From the IMG/VR virus record IMGVR_UViG_2571042390_000001: a stretch of 64,000 nt of DNA; one strand, given 5' to 3'. Positions 1 to 55,560 of the stretch are shown here, in pieces. This DNA is from a virus. Its lineage: Duplodnaviria; Heunggongvirae; Uroviricota; Caudoviricetes. A program made the translations under genes and the position numbers. The notes under the pieces are model-generated. The model saw only the letters and a list, made by a program, of their open reading frames with translations, ran no database searches and was not told the origin of the DNA. Each line of letters opens with the position of its first letter. Within the stretch, counting starts at the first letter, position 1.

Positions 1-670
1 CACTAACAGCACGTCTGAAGTGCTGGCCGCTACACCGAAAGCTGTCAAGGCTGCATATGACCTGGCTAACGGAAAACAACCGGCAGATGCCACGCTCACT
101 GCTCTGGCAGGACTTGCCACTGCAGCAGATCGGTTGCCTTATTTTACCGGAGCAGACCGCGCAGCGCTGGCAACCCTTACAGCTATTGGTCGCGCTATTA
201 TCGCTAAGGGCAGTATAAAAGATGTCCTCAATTACCTTGGTTTGGGGGAAGGCTCGGCGCTGCCCGTTGGTGTACCTGTTCCGTGGCCCACTGCCACACC
301 GCCAGCAGGCTGGTTAAAGTGCGACGGGCGCACCTTTACAAAAGAACAATATCCTGTTCTGGCCAGAGTCTACCCGACCCTCCGTCTTCCCGATTTACGC
401 GGTGAGTTTATCCGTGGATGGGACGACGGGCGAAAAGTGGATACAGGGCGCGATCTGCTTTCACGGCAGGATGGTACAAGTTTTTCTCATTACGCAGGTA
501 ATTTTGACATTGGGTCTGGTCATGCAATCAATAACTATGACCAAATCGTTGACAACCACCCTGGATTCTCCCGTTTTTCATTTGCAGGTCCTTCGCGAGG
601 CGATGGGGTTAATTTTGTGACCATTCGTCCCCGTAACATTGCGTTTAATTACATCGTAAGGGCGGCATAG
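1..670 (+). CDS. Tail-fibre protein, C-terminal part (cassette A); reading frame enters from upstream of the window
   Basis: Frame is open from position 2 to stop at 670. Contains the block PVGVPVPWPTATPPAGWLKCDG...RGEFIRGWDDGRKVDTGR shared with two other cassettes and the C-terminal motif RPRNIAFNYIVRAA. Confidence 0.7.
   Translation, partial: TNSTSEVLAATPKAVKAAYDLANGKQPADATLTALAGLATAADRLPYFTGADRAALATLTAIGRAIIAKGSIKDVLNYLGLGEGSALPVGVPVPWPTATPPAGWLKCDGRTFTKEQYPVLARVYPTLRLPDLRGEFIRGWDDGRKVDTGRDLLSRQDGTSFSHYAGNFDIGSGHAINNYDQIVDNHPGFSRFSFAGPSRGDGVNFVTIRPRNIAFNYIVRAA
227..252. other. Candidate Cin/Gin-type crossover site 1 (cix-like), inside the tail-fibre reading frame
   Basis: Reverse complement reads TTCCCCCAAACCAAGGTAATTGA, resembling the AAACC-NN-GGTTT core of Hin/Gin/Cin sites; sits at the start of the conserved cassette block. 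Confidence 0.4.
237..440 (+). repeat. Conserved cassette 5' block, copy 1 of 3 (about 200 bp)
   Basis: Near-identical DNA to 675-880 and, inverted, 2085-2290; a roughly 90-nt core (aaagaacaatatcctgttctggccagagtctacccgaccctccgtcttcccgattt...) is almost invariant. Confidence 0.8.
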
Positions 671-689
671 AAACGTTGGTTTGGGGGAA
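664..689. other. Candidate cix-like crossover site 2
   Basis: Core aaacgttggttt; reverse complement TTCCCCCAAACCAACGTTTCTATGCC; same orientation as site 1. Confidence 0.4.
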
Positions 690-880
690 GGCTCTGCATT
701 GCCTGTTGGTGTACCGGTTCCATGGCCCACCGCCACACCGCCAGCAGGCTGGTTACAGTGCAACGGAGCTACGTTCACCAAAGAACAATATCCTGTTCTG
801 GCCAGAGTCTACCCGACCCTCCGTCTTCCCGATTTGCGCGGTGAGTTTATCCGTGGATGGGACGGTGGTCGCAAGGTTGA
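675..880 (+). repeat. Conserved cassette 5' block, copy 2 of 3
   Basis: Direct repeat of 237-440. Confidence 0.8.
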
Positions 881-1142
881 TACCGGGCGTGCGCTACTTT
901 CATTTCAGGAAGGGACTATCGTATCCGGTTTTGATGATAATGATACCGGAGATATCAGTTCGCTCGGCTCTACACAATACGGATTTGGTGACGCTTTAAC
1001 CTCTAATCAACTGGGGGTCTTAAATGGCAAAAAGTGGATATTTGATGCATCCTCTAAAGGTGCACGAAGATATGACTGGTGGGCTTATGTATCAGCTCGC
1101 CCCCGCAATATCGCATTTAACTATATCGTGAGGGCGGCGTGA
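681..1142 (+). CDS. Promoterless alternative tail-fibre C-terminal cassette B
   Basis: Begins in frame inside crossover site 2 (GEGSALPVGVPVPWPTATPPAGWLQCNG...) and ends with RPRNIAFNYIVRAA; no own start context. Confidence 0.55.
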   Translation: MGEGSALPVGVPVPWPTATPPAGWLQCNGATFTKEQYPVLARVYPTLRLPDLRGEFIRGWDGGRKVDTGRALLSFQEGTIVSGFDDNDTGDISSLGSTQYGFGDALTSNQLGVLNGKKWIFDASSKGARRYDWWAYVSARPRNIAFNYIVRAA

Positions 1143-1148
1143 TACCGT

Positions 1149-1763
1149 TCAACTGGCAAGTGCCAGTGGTGCTTCCGGCCAGCTGATTTCAGGTGCCGTG
1201 CTGATATCCAGTGCGTTCAGCTCGTCGATATAATCCAGCACGGCGTTCAGTTTTGCCGTTTCTTCTGGTGTCAGACTGCGACCAGCACGCAGTTTGAGGT
1301 TGATAAGATCGACGGACGCCATCGCCTGTTTCACCCGTTGCTGGCGTTGCTGTCTGGCAACCTCCAGTTCTGCGGTTCGCTGCCGTTCAGTATCGGTTAC
1401 CCACGCCTCACCGTTCCAGGTATCCCATGGCGTGGCTGGCTGTTTTGTGGTGGTGTCCGCCGGGTAATCACCCGGTTGGGTAATCAGAACGGGGTTACCG
1501 TTCTCCGTGCTGTATACCGTCTCGCCGCGGTGATCAGGCACATGCTCCCACCCGTTCAGCGTGGCAGTCCGGCAAACCACGTAACCCGAAATTGCCTCCG
1601 GCGGTGCATCGGCGCACGAATGTGCCGGAGTACCCACCCCAAGGGCGAGATACTCCACAGAGGATGAGGTGTATTCCCGGGTTTCCTCGTCATAGTGATA
1701 TACAGTGATATCGCCCGCTACAGTGGCGATACCGTTTTCATCCAGAACTGCAGTGTTACTCAT
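1149..1763 (-). CDS. Tail fibre assembly protein (Tfa / Mu gpU-like)
   Basis: 204 aa; typical Tfa architecture with variable N-terminus and conserved C-terminal region (LNAVLDYIDELNALDISTAPEISWPE); immediately downstream of inverted cassette C. Confidence 0.8.
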   Translation of the reverse strand: MSNTAVLDENGIATVAGDITVYHYDEETREYTSSSVEYLALGVGTPAHSCADAPPEAISGYVVCRTATLNGWEHVPDHRGETVYSTENGNPVLITQPGDYPADTTTKQPATPWDTWNGEAWVTDTERQRTAELEVARQQRQQRVKQAMASVDLINLKLRAGRSLTPEETAKLNAVLDYIDELNALDISTAPEISWPEAPLALAS

Positions 1764-2245
1764 TAAACTGCCCTCACAATGTAATTAAGTGCAATGCTAC
1801 GGGGTCTGACAGTGATACCCTTCGCATACCCGCTTCTGATAGAGGTCAGAATAGTAGCCTGCATACCATTGTCTGACATTACTATGACAGGATCGCTGAA
1901 TGTTGTCCCGTCCGGCATTTTAAAGCTGCCCTCACGAAGGTCTGTAATGGAATCTTCATTGTTGAATCCCATGCCGACTATCCCCGAGGTTCCCGTAGTG
2001 TCCTGGTTATAATAATCCAGCATTGCTGTTCTTAACAGCGTTGCCCCTTGTGCGGACAGCAACTTACGTCCTGTATCAACTTTGCGCCCGTCATCCCATC
2101 CACGGATAAACTCACCGCGTAAATCGGGAAGACGGAGGGTCGGGTAGGCTCTGGCCAGAACAGGATATTGTTCTTTTGTAAAGGCGCGCCCGTCGCACTT
2201 TAACCAGCCTGCTGGCGGTGTGGCGGTGGGCCACGGAACAGGCAC
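1763..2245 (-). CDS. Alternative tail-fibre C-terminal cassette C (inverted orientation)
   Basis: Starts with the same conserved block (PVPWPTATPPAGWLKCDGRAFTKEQYPVLARAYPTLRLPDLRGEFIRGWDDGRKVDTGR) and ends RPRSIALNYIVRAV; conserved coding continues upstream through site 3. Confidence 0.6.
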   Translation of the reverse strand: MPVPWPTATPPAGWLKCDGRAFTKEQYPVLARAYPTLRLPDLRGEFIRGWDDGRKVDTGRKLLSAQGATLLRTAMLDYYNQDTTGTSGIVGMGFNNEDSITDLREGSFKMPDGTTFSDPVIVMSDNGMQATILTSIRSGYAKGITVRPRSIALNYIVRAV

Positions 2246-2290
2246 ACCAACGGGTAGCGCCGAGCCTTCTCCTAAACCAACGTTTATCTC
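2085..2290 (-). repeat. Conserved cassette 5' block, copy 3 of 3 (inverted)
   Basis: Reverse-complement copy of 237-440 and 675-880. Confidence 0.8.
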
Positions 2291-2293
2291 TCA
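2268..2293. other. Candidate cix-like crossover site 3 (inverted relative to sites 1 and 2)
   Basis: Plus strand TTCTCCTAAACCAACGTTTATCTCTC; 54 bp upstream of the invertase start codon. Confidence 0.45.
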
Positions 2294-2346
2294 AATCCTC
2301 CCCACATTATCTCAGTACTTTAACCACTCAAAAGGGAGTATTTTTA

Positions 2347-2919
2347 ATGCTGATTGGCTACATACGTGTGTCAACAAATGACCAAAACACAGATTTGCAA
2401 CGCAATGCATTAATGTGCGCAGGATGTGAACAGATTTTTGAGGACAAAATGAGCGGAACCAAGTCGGAACGACCAGGCCTGAAACGCGCTTTAAAGTGCC
2501 TTAAAAGAGGGGATACATTGGTGGTCTGGAAGCTGGATCGGTTGGGTAGAAGAATGAAACACCTCATTGCTCTCACAGAAGAGTTACGCGCAAAAGGTGT
2601 CAATTTTCGCAGTCTGACGGATTCAATCGATACCAGCACTCCGATGGGAAGGTTCTTTTTTCATATGATGGGTGCACTGGCAGAAATGGAGCGTGAACTG
2701 ATAGTTGAGCGCACGCTGGCAGGACTGGCTGCTGCGCGAGCACAAGGAAGAGTTGGAGGACGTCGCCCGAAACTGACGAAGGAGCAGCATGAGCAGATCG
2801 CAAGATTGCTCCAGAAAGGGTATGACAGAAAGCGGCTGGCAATTATCTATGATATTGGACTGTCAACGATCTACCGCTATCACCCTGTTGGGACTGTCAT
2901 AACGCAACCTGAAATGTAA
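2347..2919 (+). CDS. cin: Serine DNA invertase (Cin/Gin/Hin/Pin family)
   Basis: 190 aa starting MLIGYIRVSTNDQNTDLQRNAL with catalytic serine context and C-terminal HTH (GYDRKRLAIIYDIGLSTIYRY); RBS aagggag upstream of ATG 2347. Confidence 0.9.
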   Translation: MLIGYIRVSTNDQNTDLQRNALMCAGCEQIFEDKMSGTKSERPGLKRALKCLKRGDTLVVWKLDRLGRRMKHLIALTEELRAKGVNFRSLTDSIDTSTPMGRFFFHMMGALAEMERELIVERTLAGLAAARAQGRVGGRRPKLTKEQHEQIARLLQKGYDRKRLAIIYDIGLSTIYRYHPVGTVITQPEM

Positions 2920-3135
2920 TTCTTTTTCAAATAATGAAACGCCGCGTGGATGCCATTTATCGCACAAGATAGAGTGCATTTATCGCGCGGCGCATCATCA
3001 TTTGTTGATATGCGAATGTATCCAATAAGCATATGTCTCCCTTGTATGCTAAGGATACGATCCTAGAAGATGTCCTGTAAGGAAATAACAAACTGACTAA
3101 GTTAGTGGCGCATTAGATGTTATTTCTGGAGGGGT

Positions 3136-3462
3136 ATGTTTGCAGATTATGAAAATCTGGCTGTAGTAGTCATAACATCCCTACTAAGTGGAACCGGCGT
3201 ATTCCTTCTCGGAGTTAGAGACGGGCGCATTTCTGCGTCCCTGCTCAATCTTGCGAGTGAATTGTTTACTGCGGTAACAGCCGGGCTTGCGGGGTATGGG
3301 GTGGCGGTTAGCCAAGAATGGCCTGAAGGTATCATTTTCTGCGTTGTTCTGATTGCCAGTAACAACGGTAGTGAAATTTTACAGGGCTTGAAGTCCAGAG
3401 CTAGTTACGTCTTGAATCTCTTAAGCGTAATAGCGAATGGGGGAAAAGGTGGAGAGAAATAA
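3136..3462 (+). CDS. Holin-like membrane protein (LydA-like by size and position)
   Basis: 108 aa with three hydrophobic segments; first gene of a plus-strand operon after the invertase. Confidence 0.45.
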   Translation: MFADYENLAVVVITSLLSGTGVFLLGVRDGRISASLLNLASELFTAVTAGLAGYGVAVSQEWPEGIIFCVVLIASNNGSEILQGLKSRASYVLNLLSVIANGGKGGEK

Positions 3463-14963: not shown

Positions 14964-15289
14964 AATGTATGATCTGCATCATCGACTGAAGTCATCCATT
15001 GCTGAAATTTTTAGTTGATCTTCCATGTTTTCAGGCTTATATTCATGCCGTCGTAGCAAATTCTGCGACCGGGTTTGACAGCCTGAATGTTAGTGCGGAC
15101 AACCGCAGATTTCCGATATTGCGGTATTTTTGTGTCCGTAAACCGCGTTACGCCCGAATTATGGTGGGGCGTGATGGGGAGGCTTCGGCCTGCTGGTTTC
15201 ACTAACGCCAGTCTGTCAACCCTGTCACGTCCTGCCACCTGTTTGACAGCGGGTGGCAGGTTGTTAAACCTGTTAGTGAGGCCGTAACT

Positions 15290-28357: not shown

Positions 28358-28432
28358 GATGGTGTAGCTCAGCGGTAGAGCAGTTGGCTGTTAACCAACT
28401 GGTCGGTGGTTCGAATCCACCCACCATCGCCA
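28358..28432 (+). tRNA. tRNA-Asn (anticodon GTT)
   Basis: 75 nt with CCA; acceptor gatggtg/caccatc, T-arm ggtgg-ttcgaat-ccacc, anticodon loop ctGTTaa. Confidence 0.85.
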
Positions 28433-28437
28433 ATTTA

Positions 28438-28524
28438 GGGGAGTTAGTCCGTAGGGGTAGCGGGGTAGACTGTAAATCTACTGTCATTGCGACTCGGGTG
28501 GTTCGACTCCATCACTCCCCACCA
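28438..28524 (+). tRNA. tRNA-Tyr (anticodon GTA), type II with long variable arm
   Basis: 87 nt with CCA; acceptor ggggagt/actcccc, anticodon arm gtaga-ctGTAaa-tctac, variable arm gtcattgcgac, T-loop ttcgact. Confidence 0.7.
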
Positions 28525-28528
28525 AATT

Positions 28529-28604
28529 GCCGGTTTAGCTCAGTTGGTAGAGCAGTCGCTTTGTAAGCGAATGGTCAGCGGTTCGATCCCGTTAACCGGC
28601 ACCA
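28529..28604 (+). tRNA. tRNA-Thr (anticodon TGT)
   Basis: 76 nt with CCA; acceptor gccggtt/aaccggc, anticodon loop ttTGTaa, T-loop ttcgatc. Confidence 0.85.
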
Positions 28605-29058
28605 ACACAACAGGTAAGAGCATTTGTAGAGTTCGACTCTCTACCGTGGGCTTTTTCCCGCGATGCGAGCCATAAATGCTCTTACCGTTGTGATGAAGTG
28701 CAGCTCTTTGAAGCAACCAGAAGATAAGCATCTGGCTTCACAACATAAACCGCAGGAACGACCAATAAACGGTAGTCCGTATGGAGAACACCCCGTTGAG
28801 GAAGAGGTCTGGCCGGAACCGTAACCGGCACTACAACGTTGAGAACACTGGCGTAACGGGGTCATATCCCAATCTACGAATAAATGTTGCGTTGCAGCGT
28901 GACAACCAGTGTTCTCAACATTGTGGTGAATGCGCAGGCTGATGCGCGAAAGACATTGCAGCTATTGCGGAAAAGAGCTGTTCGGCGGGGCAATTAAACG
29001 CCCGTGAGAGTCTGAAATAACCGCAAGCCGGAGATCAGCACCGGTCGCCACAATAACG

Positions 29059-29145
29059 GGAGAGTAGGGAGCATGGTGCTCAAGCGGTCTTGAAAACCGT
29101 CCCATTGCGCAAGCGATGATGGTTCGATTCCATTACTCTCCGCCA
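29059..29145 (+). tRNA. tRNA-Ser (anticodon TGA), type II
   Basis: 87 nt with CCA; acceptor ggagagt/actctcc, anticodon arm gcggt-ctTGAaa-accgt, T-loop ttcgatt. Confidence 0.7.
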
Positions 29146-29436
29146 GTGCAACATTAAGGGTATTTGGCTAATTAAGCGAATGCCGGAAGCAGAACCGGAT
29201 CACCAAATGCGTACAGGCGTCATCGCCGCCCAGTCAGCCAAATGCTCTTACCATTGCGGTGAATGCGGCTAAGCGCACGCGGAACAGTTAAAACAGTAAA
29301 GGTGGTCTTTTTACTGGCGTAACGAGAATCCATAAGTGATCCGGCGTTAATTGTTAACTGGTTAACGTCACCGGGAGGCGCCCGGCACCGCAACCTAACA
29401 GCAATGGCGTTTTGTCTTAAAAGGTGGCTGCAAGTG

Positions 29437-29565
29437 ATGGATTTTTGGGCGTTTGCCGATAAAAACCCGGAGTGGACATTATTGTTTCTGCTGGTGGTTG
29501 CATACGGGGTAGAGCAAGCGGCAAAAGCCTTACGCGGTTCTGGCAAAAAGCGTAAGCGTAATTAA
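29437..29565 (+). CDS. Possible small membrane peptide (42 aa)
   Basis: RBS aaggtgg then ATG; MDFWAFADKNPEWTLLFLLVVAYGVEQAAKALRGSGKKRKRN; hydrophobic core with basic tail; sits between tRNA genes. Confidence 0.25.
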   Translation: MDFWAFADKNPEWTLLFLLVVAYGVEQAAKALRGSGKKRKRN

Positions 29566-29574
29566 CAGTAATCT

Positions 29575-29650
29575 GGCCCTTTAGCTCAGTGGTTAGAGCG
29601 GGCGACTCATAATCGCACGGTCACCGGTTCAAGTCCGGTAGGGGCCACCA
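29575..29650 (+). tRNA. tRNA with CAT anticodon (Met or lysidine-modified Ile)
   Basis: 76 nt with CCA; acceptor ggccctt/aggggcc, anticodon loop ctCATaa, T-arm accgg-ttcaagt-ccggt. Confidence 0.85.
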
Positions 29651-54767: not shown

Positions 54768-55389
54768 AGTTGAATTGAAAAACTCTCCGATGTACATTCA
54801 CTACCGATTGGCACACCGGTCAACTTTTTGAGACAAACTGTTTAGTTTTTCGTATTATTGCCTCCGCCATACCTATGGCGGTGCAATATAGGTGGCTGAA
54901 AAGCCCCCGTTGACTCACGGTGTTCCAGCCTTTATTGCGCCGCCACCAGACCGTGGAACAGTCGATGGCGGCTCCGAAAGCAAGGAGTCACAACACTATG
55001 AACAACTACAGTCTTTTCCCATCACTCGTCTTCCACCACTCACGCGATAATCTGCATTCTTTGCTCGCGCCGGGGGTGTCAAAATGACTGTTCGCTACCT
55101 CAACTTTCAAATCAAGAACATTACTGGCGGTTGCTATGACTGGTTTGTCACTCTCGGAAAAGAAGTGATCACCGGGAAGCTGGATGAAGTGAAAGCTAAA
55201 GCAATGGCCTACGCCTGCAAGCAAGTCAGGAAGAAATCCGCCAAAGCATAAAATACTGACTGTTGCGCCCTGGCATTATCGTGGGGTATATTTCTACGGC
55301 ACCTTAGAAAAACGGGTGCCGGGATTGGAACCCCGGATAATGTCAAAGGCGACACAGACGCCGAACGCGTCTTTTTTTGTGTCATGCCA

Positions 55390-55560
55390 TCGCACAGCCA
55401 TACTTAGCGTTTAGCTCAGAGATCAATGGTAGTGCTGGCTGGGCTGCCGAAAGGCAGGCCGGTTCCCTTTGACGCCGGTAGTTCCAACCCAGTCAGTGCT
55501 ACCGCCATTGAGATTGGAACCTCACGCGGTAGCTCCTTAACTTAGTCAAAGGAGGCTGCC
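55390..55560 (+). ncRNA. Candidate c4-type antisense regulatory RNA locus; boundaries not defined
   Basis: ORF-free, hairpin-rich leader between operator and icd-like gene, where P1 places c4; no sequence match verified. Confidence 0.2.

Follow-up and report, generated by a model that had tools for sequence, protein, structure and literature searches.

The 64,000 nucleotides of the virus record IMGVR_UViG_2571042390_000001 (Caudoviricetes) analysed here, referred to below as the window, open with an array of tail-fibre sequences beside a recombinase gene. Positions 1-2919 comprise the 3′ end of a tail-fibre gene, three cassettes (A, B and C) encoding alternative C-termini of the fibre, a single tail-fibre assembly gene (tfa), three crossover sites (s1, s2 and s3) and a DNA invertase gene (Table 1). 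We are highly confident that together these parts make up a multiple-inversion host-range switch driven by one serine invertase of the Gin/Cin family.

Table 1. Coordinates of the features of the switch region in the window
Feature	Position	Strand	Remarks
Constant part of tail-fibre gene, 3′ end	1-236	+	cut by window edge; open from nucleotide 2; Pfam Phage_fiber_2 repeat at amino acids 1-27
Site s1	225-250	-	inner half first, TTCCCCCAAACC AA GGTAATTGAGGA; centre 237-238
Cassette A	237-670	+	fused to constant part in open reading frame 20-670; expressed form in this arrangement; Pfam Collar PF07484, E 5e-16
Site s2	664-689	-	inner half first, TTCCCCCAAACC AA CGTTTCTATGCC; centre 676-677
Cassette B	676-1142	+	silent here; Pfam Collar
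tfa, tail-fibre assembly gene (only one)	1149-1763	-	Pfam Caudo_TAP, E 5.5e-28; co-oriented with cassette C
Cassette C	1763-2280	-	silent here; Pfam Collar
Site s3	2267-2292	+	TTCTCCTAAACC AA CGTTTATCTCTC; centre 2279-2280; inverted relative to s1 and s2
DNA invertase, 190 amino acids	2347-2919	+	serine recombinase of the Gin/Cin/Hin/Pin/Min (Din) family; Pfam Resolvase, E 8e-51, and HTH_7, E 1e-12
Putative recombinational enhancer	2365-2436		predicted equivalent of the annotated P1 enhancer, cin nucleotides 19-90
Scar, first ~35 nucleotides of a D6/P1-type cin	2998-3032	-	inverted repeat; match to the D6 'DNA invertase' starts at 2998; right edge of the module

The three cassettes are built alike. 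All carry a Phage Tail Collar domain (PF07484, with E values of about 1e-15 to 5e-16) and share an N-terminal block of ~72 amino acids (90-96% identity), followed by divergent middles (20-26%) and a conserved stretch of 14 residues at the very end (79-100%). A preliminary description of this DNA had proposed three cassettes with a common 5′ block of ~200 bp and a conserved C-terminal motif. The blocks were recovered by a repeat finder as one direct repeat (234-477 / 673-916, 86% identity) and two inverted repeats (234-462 / 2055-2283, 93%; 671-901 / 2055-2285, 85%), and the motif reads RPRNIAFNYIVRAA at the ends of cassettes A and B and RPRSIALNYIVRAV at the end of cassette C. Rearrangement at the site centres fuses each of the three cassettes in frame to the constant part, yielding open fusions of 222, 250 and 233 amino acids (counted from window nucleotide 2).

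Each repeat block starts at a 26-bp site made up of two imperfect 12-bp inverted half-sites and a 2-bp core, and the central dinucleotide AA/TT is common to all three sites. The 14-nucleotide core TTCYCCYAAACCAA was found without mismatch at exactly three places in the 64-kb window [237-250(-), 676-689(-) and 2267-2280(+)]. With up to two mismatches there were 6 matches (1.57 expected), a number reached in none of 100 shuffles. The sites lie within 1-2 bp of the cix/gix-like cores of the preliminary description, which had also read their orientations correctly: s1 and s2 are direct and s3 is inverted.

For reference we used the annotated cix sites of P1 and D6 (TTCTCTTAAACC AA GGTTTAGGATTG and TTCTCTTAAACC AA GGTATTGGATAA) and Mu sites derived from the annotated boundaries of the G segment (TTCCTGTAAACC GA GGTTTTGGATAA). 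The inner halves TTCCCCCAAACC and TTCTCCTAAACC resemble TTCTCTTAAACC of cix and TTCCTGTAAACC of gix, and the central AA is as in cix. The resemblance to characterised sites thus held for all inner halves and, for cix, the centre; it did not extend to the outer halves of s2 and s3, which are degenerate (CGTTT...) and agree poorly with the cix/gix consensus. In s2, this half consists of the last codons and the stop of cassette A. Since the stop region of one cassette forms the outer half of the next site, each cassette carries material for the next site. Cassettes may be stackable units, and this may explain the relatives with two, three, four and eight sites described below.

We propose that the invertase would recombine any pair of oppositely oriented 26-bp sites, with strand exchange at the common central AA/TT. 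Two segments could be flipped in this way: X, containing cassette A, and Y, containing cassette B, tfa and cassette C. Because two sites are direct and one is inverted, and provided that only inversion takes place, four arrangements are reachable. With a prime marking reversed elements, these are state 1 (constant part-A, then B tfa′ C′), which is the arrangement in the window; state 2 (constant part-A, then C tfa B′); state 3 (constant part-C tfa B′, then A′); and state 4 (constant part-B tfa′ C′, then A′). Starting from the window, cassette C would be fused by one inversion (s1 × s3) and cassette B by two. Each arrangement would provide the constant fibre shaft with one of three receptor-binding tips, and single lysogens would produce phage bearing one of the three tips. 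A consequence for host range would be expected by analogy with Mu, P1 and related systems.

This proposal could be compared with public genomes. Positions 5-2998 of the window are 99.0% identical to a chromosomal prophage adjoining aroA in ST131 Escherichia coli, for example in strain JJ1886; the constant part is 99% identical from nucleotide 5 on, and s1, s2 and s3 are all identical to the ST131 sites. We built the three other arrangements in silico and searched 5,426 complete E. coli genomes. All four arrangements were found, each as one collinear 2,994-bp alignment with 99.0% identity. State 1 was present in at least 40 genomes (e.g. JJ1886, U14A and p11A), and at least 60 genomes each carried state 2 (e.g. 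U13A and Esc1-7), state 3 (e.g. JJ1887, EC958 and p11B) and state 4 (e.g. Esc10). The stepwise inversions that had been suggested to bring cassette B or C into frame with the constant part are therefore represented among sequenced isolates.

The numbers of genomes per state are lower bounds only. States 1 and 4 share ~85% collinear sequence that the search tool joins, and so do states 2 and 3. Exact counts for each state at ≥80% coverage (264, 274, 268 and 249 genomes) were confounded by such joined alignments and were discarded. Bands at ≥99% identity (109, 109, 164 and 155) were not accepted as exact counts either, as a probe for the junction of A′ with the invertase gene was found in 293 genomes, compared with 319 when the bands were summed. 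The junction probe and the coverage counts show that no state dominates. All segments were kept in every three-site locus that we fetched. Joined BLAST pieces would mask products of deletion between the direct sites s1 and s2.

Near-identical isolates differed in state, as seen for U13A/U14A, JJ1886/JJ1887, the Esc series and the p11A/p11B series. In U13A and U14A, the locus lies at the same coordinates in genomes whose lengths are 1 bp apart. We inverted the 5,994-bp locus of U14A in silico at the site centres and obtained the sequences of JJ1887, U13A, Esc1 and Esc10 with 0 differences. The breakpoints tolerated by this reconstruction span -1 to +6 around the centre (8 bp) for s1 × s3 and s1 × s2, and -6 to +6 (13 bp) for s2 × s3; both intervals contain the central AA.

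These breakpoints bear on the question of whether the rearrangements are made by the invertase or by RecA-dependent homologous recombination between the inverted repeats of ~230 bp. The repeats (229-231 nucleotides, 85-93% identical) are long and similar enough for occasional homologous exchange. The crossovers of such exchange would be expected at varying places within the repeat, with mosaic repeats as a result, whereas in all four isolates, and for all three site pairings, the observed exchange point fell in the same 8-bp or 13-bp interval. Exchange inside a 26-bp site at the very edge of 230 bp of homology argues against general homologous recombination. The states are also fairly even among clonal isolates, which points to high-frequency switching, and the account of the EC958 tail-fibre regions in PMC4134206 gives ~50% inverted reads at Phi1 and alternative contigs for Phi2. 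We consider homologous recombination a very improbable source of the four states, and attribute them to the invertase.

A second alternative is that only s1 and s3 are functional and form a two-state switch, with s2 and cassette B as a relic. In its outer half, s2 agrees poorly with the consensus, and the text of Table 3 in PMC4134206 names just two sites for Phi2, one 5′ and one 3′. However, states 2 and 4 require s2, each occurs in at least 60 genomes, and some of the isolates in these states are otherwise identical over 5,994 bp to isolates in state 1 or 3; sites 1 and 2 therefore both work. Moreover, use of the middle repeat was detected by PCR in the homologous locus of enteropathogenic E. 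coli (EPEC; PMC4272514). The state 2 and state 4 genomes and the reconstruction with zero differences already refute the relic explanation, which could be revived by artefactual assemblies alone, and we give it next to no credence. We conclude that all three sites take part in a four-state switch.

The recombinase next to the sites, already taken for the invertase of the system in the preliminary description, is confirmed as a serine invertase. Its best match of solved structure is a chain deposited as 'DNA-invertase' (4m6f/3uj3; E 2e-93). The protein is 100% identical to that of ST131, 71.5% identical to Gin of Mu and 70% identical to Cin of P1 and of D6; at 70-71.5% identity to Gin and Cin, it belongs to the Din family as a member in its own right. 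The gene reads away from the invertible DNA, and s3 lies ~55 bp upstream of its start codon. This position of s3 in the presumed promoter region of the gene would allow autoregulation. Dependence on Fis and an enhancer, and restriction to inversion, are likewise predicted.

A candidate for the enhancer lies within the invertase gene. The stretch 2365-2436 shares 54 of 72 nucleotides with P1 and 55 of 72 with Mu, and its synonymous codons were more conserved than those of codons 31-135 in six of six gene pairs. For the EPEC gene pair, identity at synonymous codons was 82% in the stretch equivalent to the enhancer versus 34% in codons 31-135. Synonymous conservation of this kind hints at a constraint at the DNA level and is consistent with an intragenic enhancer.

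The single tfa gene lies directly downstream of cassette C in the inverted arrangement, and the stop of cassette C overlaps the tfa start (TAATG). As the preliminary description had stated, only the inverted cassette has its own tfa. Relative to the fibre operon, the gene has the same orientation in states 2 and 3 only; in states 1 and 4 it is antisense. The EPEC locus, and a locus with eight sites on an IncY plasmid (see below), likewise have an antisense tfa and A- and B-type cassettes without a tfa of their own. Because these loci have the same layout, we regard the single tfa as a conserved design. Tips of the A and B types either do not need Tfa for folding or obtain it in trans. In the partial record of phage PhiKM, consulted for an A/B-type tip lacking a tfa, the fibre gene is cut.

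States 1 and 2 both express fibre A and differ in the downstream tfa, which is in the sense orientation only in states 2 and 3. The four arrangements might therefore correspond to four phenotypes rather than three, with Tfa acting in trans on the A or B tips or decorating them. We put this forward tentatively and think it rather unlikely. If it were true, the seemingly silent s2 × s3 inversion would be a means of tuning the assembly of the fibre or its use of receptors.

Beyond the switch, the window is a D6-like phage-plasmid. From nucleotide 2998 on it is 97.5% identical to phage D6, and its backbone is 99.8% identical over 20 kb to plasmid p95_MLI121. Identity of the ST131 type stops and identity of the D6 type begins at one base, 2998, where the remnant of a cin gene starts that is oriented opposite to the working invertase. 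This switch of identity, together with the cin scar and the adjoining positions 3033-3135, argues that the whole module came in as one imported unit and took the place of the native one. D6 itself carries a C segment of the classical kind, in which each of the two cassettes is provided with a tfa and towards which the cin gene reads. Judged from the sequences on either side of the scar, it was evidently a C segment of this type, and its convergent cin, that the import replaced.

Related plasmids carry versions of the module that differ in size. In p95_MLI121 (NZ_CP117014.1, 4225-6708), the closest backbone that we fetched, an identical invertase protein is accompanied by two sites, two cassettes and two tfa genes; its cassette content thus differs from that of the window despite the near-identical backbone. 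The sister D6-like plasmids pF374-2 and p13ZX36-90 have three sites and are both in state 4, with cassette B fused. Plasmid pCUVET20-PYO4.3 has four sites and an extra cassette D. A P1-like IncY plasmid (NZ_CP145648.1, 2581-7090) has eight sites (four per orientation) together with about eight cassettes and only one tfa, and looks like a large, Min-type version of the same design.

Several observations weigh against the interpretation of the region in the window as a working host-range switch. The outer halves of s2 and s3 fit the cix/gix consensus poorly, as described above. Cassettes A and B, being without their own tfa, are candidate tips only. Upstream of the switch, ST131 has a truncated fibre gene (an annotated pseudogene without its N-terminus), and all four states still occur; that copy flips without making a working fibre. 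The putative enhancer was recognised by conservation inside a coding stretch that is itself already conserved. A scan of 1-3200 for promoters and terminators yielded no sigma-70-like promoter for the invertase gene or tfa. Finally, activity in this plasmid is predicted from the identical sites and the identical invertase protein.

The sole sigma-70-like promoter match in 1-3200 lies at 3173-3146 (-), pointing leftward from the holin-cin intergenic region. It faces the remnant of cin as well as the 3′ end of the working invertase gene, and antisense transcription is possible.

A third alternative is that the module in this plasmid is a frozen import, structurally complete and no longer switching, for instance because its new context blocks expression of the invertase. 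Besides the lack of a clear promoter upstream of the invertase gene in the scanned region, it could be argued for this that the remnant of the cin promoter region (3173-3146, -) may drive antisense transcription across the invertase gene. Set against this, the invertase protein is 100% identical to that of ST131 and the three sites are identical as well, the region upstream of the invertase gene lies inside the imported block (5-2998), and related D6-like plasmids carry a near-identical module in another state. We consider a frozen import improbable, though less so than the two alternatives discussed above, and favour a module that would still switch in the phage-plasmid.

Elsewhere in the window, there is a match to the C4 antisense RNA at 15157-15242 (region 15037-15242), with an a1/b1 target element just upstream, and a second one at 55422-55509 (region 55299-55509), which adjoins a match to isrK. 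One element thus apparently contains two immunity-type C4 loci. A cluster of five tRNA genes is located at 28358-29650 (Asn-GTT, Tyr-GTA, Thr-TGT, Ser-TGA and Met-CAT).

For annotation, our results mean that three fragments labelled 'phage tail protein', a lone tfa and a recombinase should be treated as one functional unit, and that assemblies of the same strain will legitimately differ at this locus. They also indicate that a probable host-range switch moves in one piece between a P2/Mu-like prophage of the chromosome and a D6-like phage-plasmid. The system as such is already known: both the module (EC958 Phi2; PMC4134206) and a homologous three-site locus (PMC4272514) have been in print since 2014. 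The only new detail here is that the module was transplanted into a phage-plasmid of the D6 type; mechanism, module and three-site design are all in the literature, and no new question is opened.

The closest known system is Phi2 of EC958, the prophage that adjoins aroA in JJ1886. Forde et al. (2014) reported, in their account of the tail-fibre regions of the EC958 prophages, alternative PacBio contigs for these regions, Phi2 included, and inversion in ~50% of reads at the neighbouring locus Phi1 (PMC4134206). Phi2 agrees with the window in 99% identity over 5-2998, the same 26-bp sites and an identical invertase protein. The Phi2 sites listed in Table 3 of that paper, TCCTCAATTACCTT GGTTTAGGAGAA and GAGAGATAAACGTT GGTTTGGGGGAA, flank a segment of 2,067 bp that was seen to invert among the PacBio reads. 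The halves of s1 match these crossover sites, which are the s1/s3 hybrid sites of state 3. Two sites are given in the table text; our evidence for the middle site and for states 2 and 4 comes from public genomes. Phi2 is chromosomal and lies in a P2/Mu-like prophage with a truncated fibre gene, whereas the copy in the window is part of a D6-like phage-plasmid. In the same prophage, switching has been confirmed by PCR in the ST131 'Bone' wound isolates (bioRxiv 10.1101/2022.05.07.487787).

The EPEC locus has the same architecture. In the P2-like prophage of EPEC E2348/69, Goldberg et al. (2014) described three repeats and two nested inversions, with four coexisting variants detected by PCR and sequencing and three alternative C-termini (PMC4272514). 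The order of elements is that of the window [fibre-A, B, tfa(-), C(-), invertase(+)], and three sites are present in the same orientations and at similar spacing (432 bp in EPEC vs 439 bp in the window, and 1,576 bp vs 1,603 bp). The two loci are collinear at ~69-77% nucleotide identity. They differ in the middles of the tips, in the length of the invertase (200 amino acids in EPEC vs 190) and in the chromosomal P2-like context of the EPEC locus.

The two-cassette segments of P1, D6 and Mu are more distant. Cin of P1 and D6 and Gin of Mu have 70-72% identity to the invertase of the window, act at 26-bp sites with the same half-site pattern and exchange the fibre C-terminus in frame. Unlike the locus in the window, the P1, D6 and Mu segments comprise two sites and two cassettes, each cassette with its own tfa. 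The cin genes of P1 and D6 read towards the segment, ending at cixL, whereas the invertase gene of the window reads away from it, as gin does in Mu.

Min of p15B, a P1-related plasmid, combines one invertase of the Din family with sites in both orientations and many alternative fibre 3′ ends. It is the classical multi-site precedent, described by Sandmeier, Iida and Arber, and has six sites and many more isomers than the locus in the window, with its three sites and four isomers.

The preliminary description had likened the region to a multiple-inversion shufflon. With the R64 shufflon (Rci/sfx/pilV), it shares the presence of several sites in both orientations, a predicted rearrangement by inversion only and alternative C-termini of an adhesin-like protein. 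The R64 system differs in its tyrosine recombinase, its other sites and its target, the tip of a conjugative pilus. The locus in the window works like a shufflon, but its serine recombinase, its cix/gix-like sites and its tail-fibre target place it outside the R64 Rci shufflon family.

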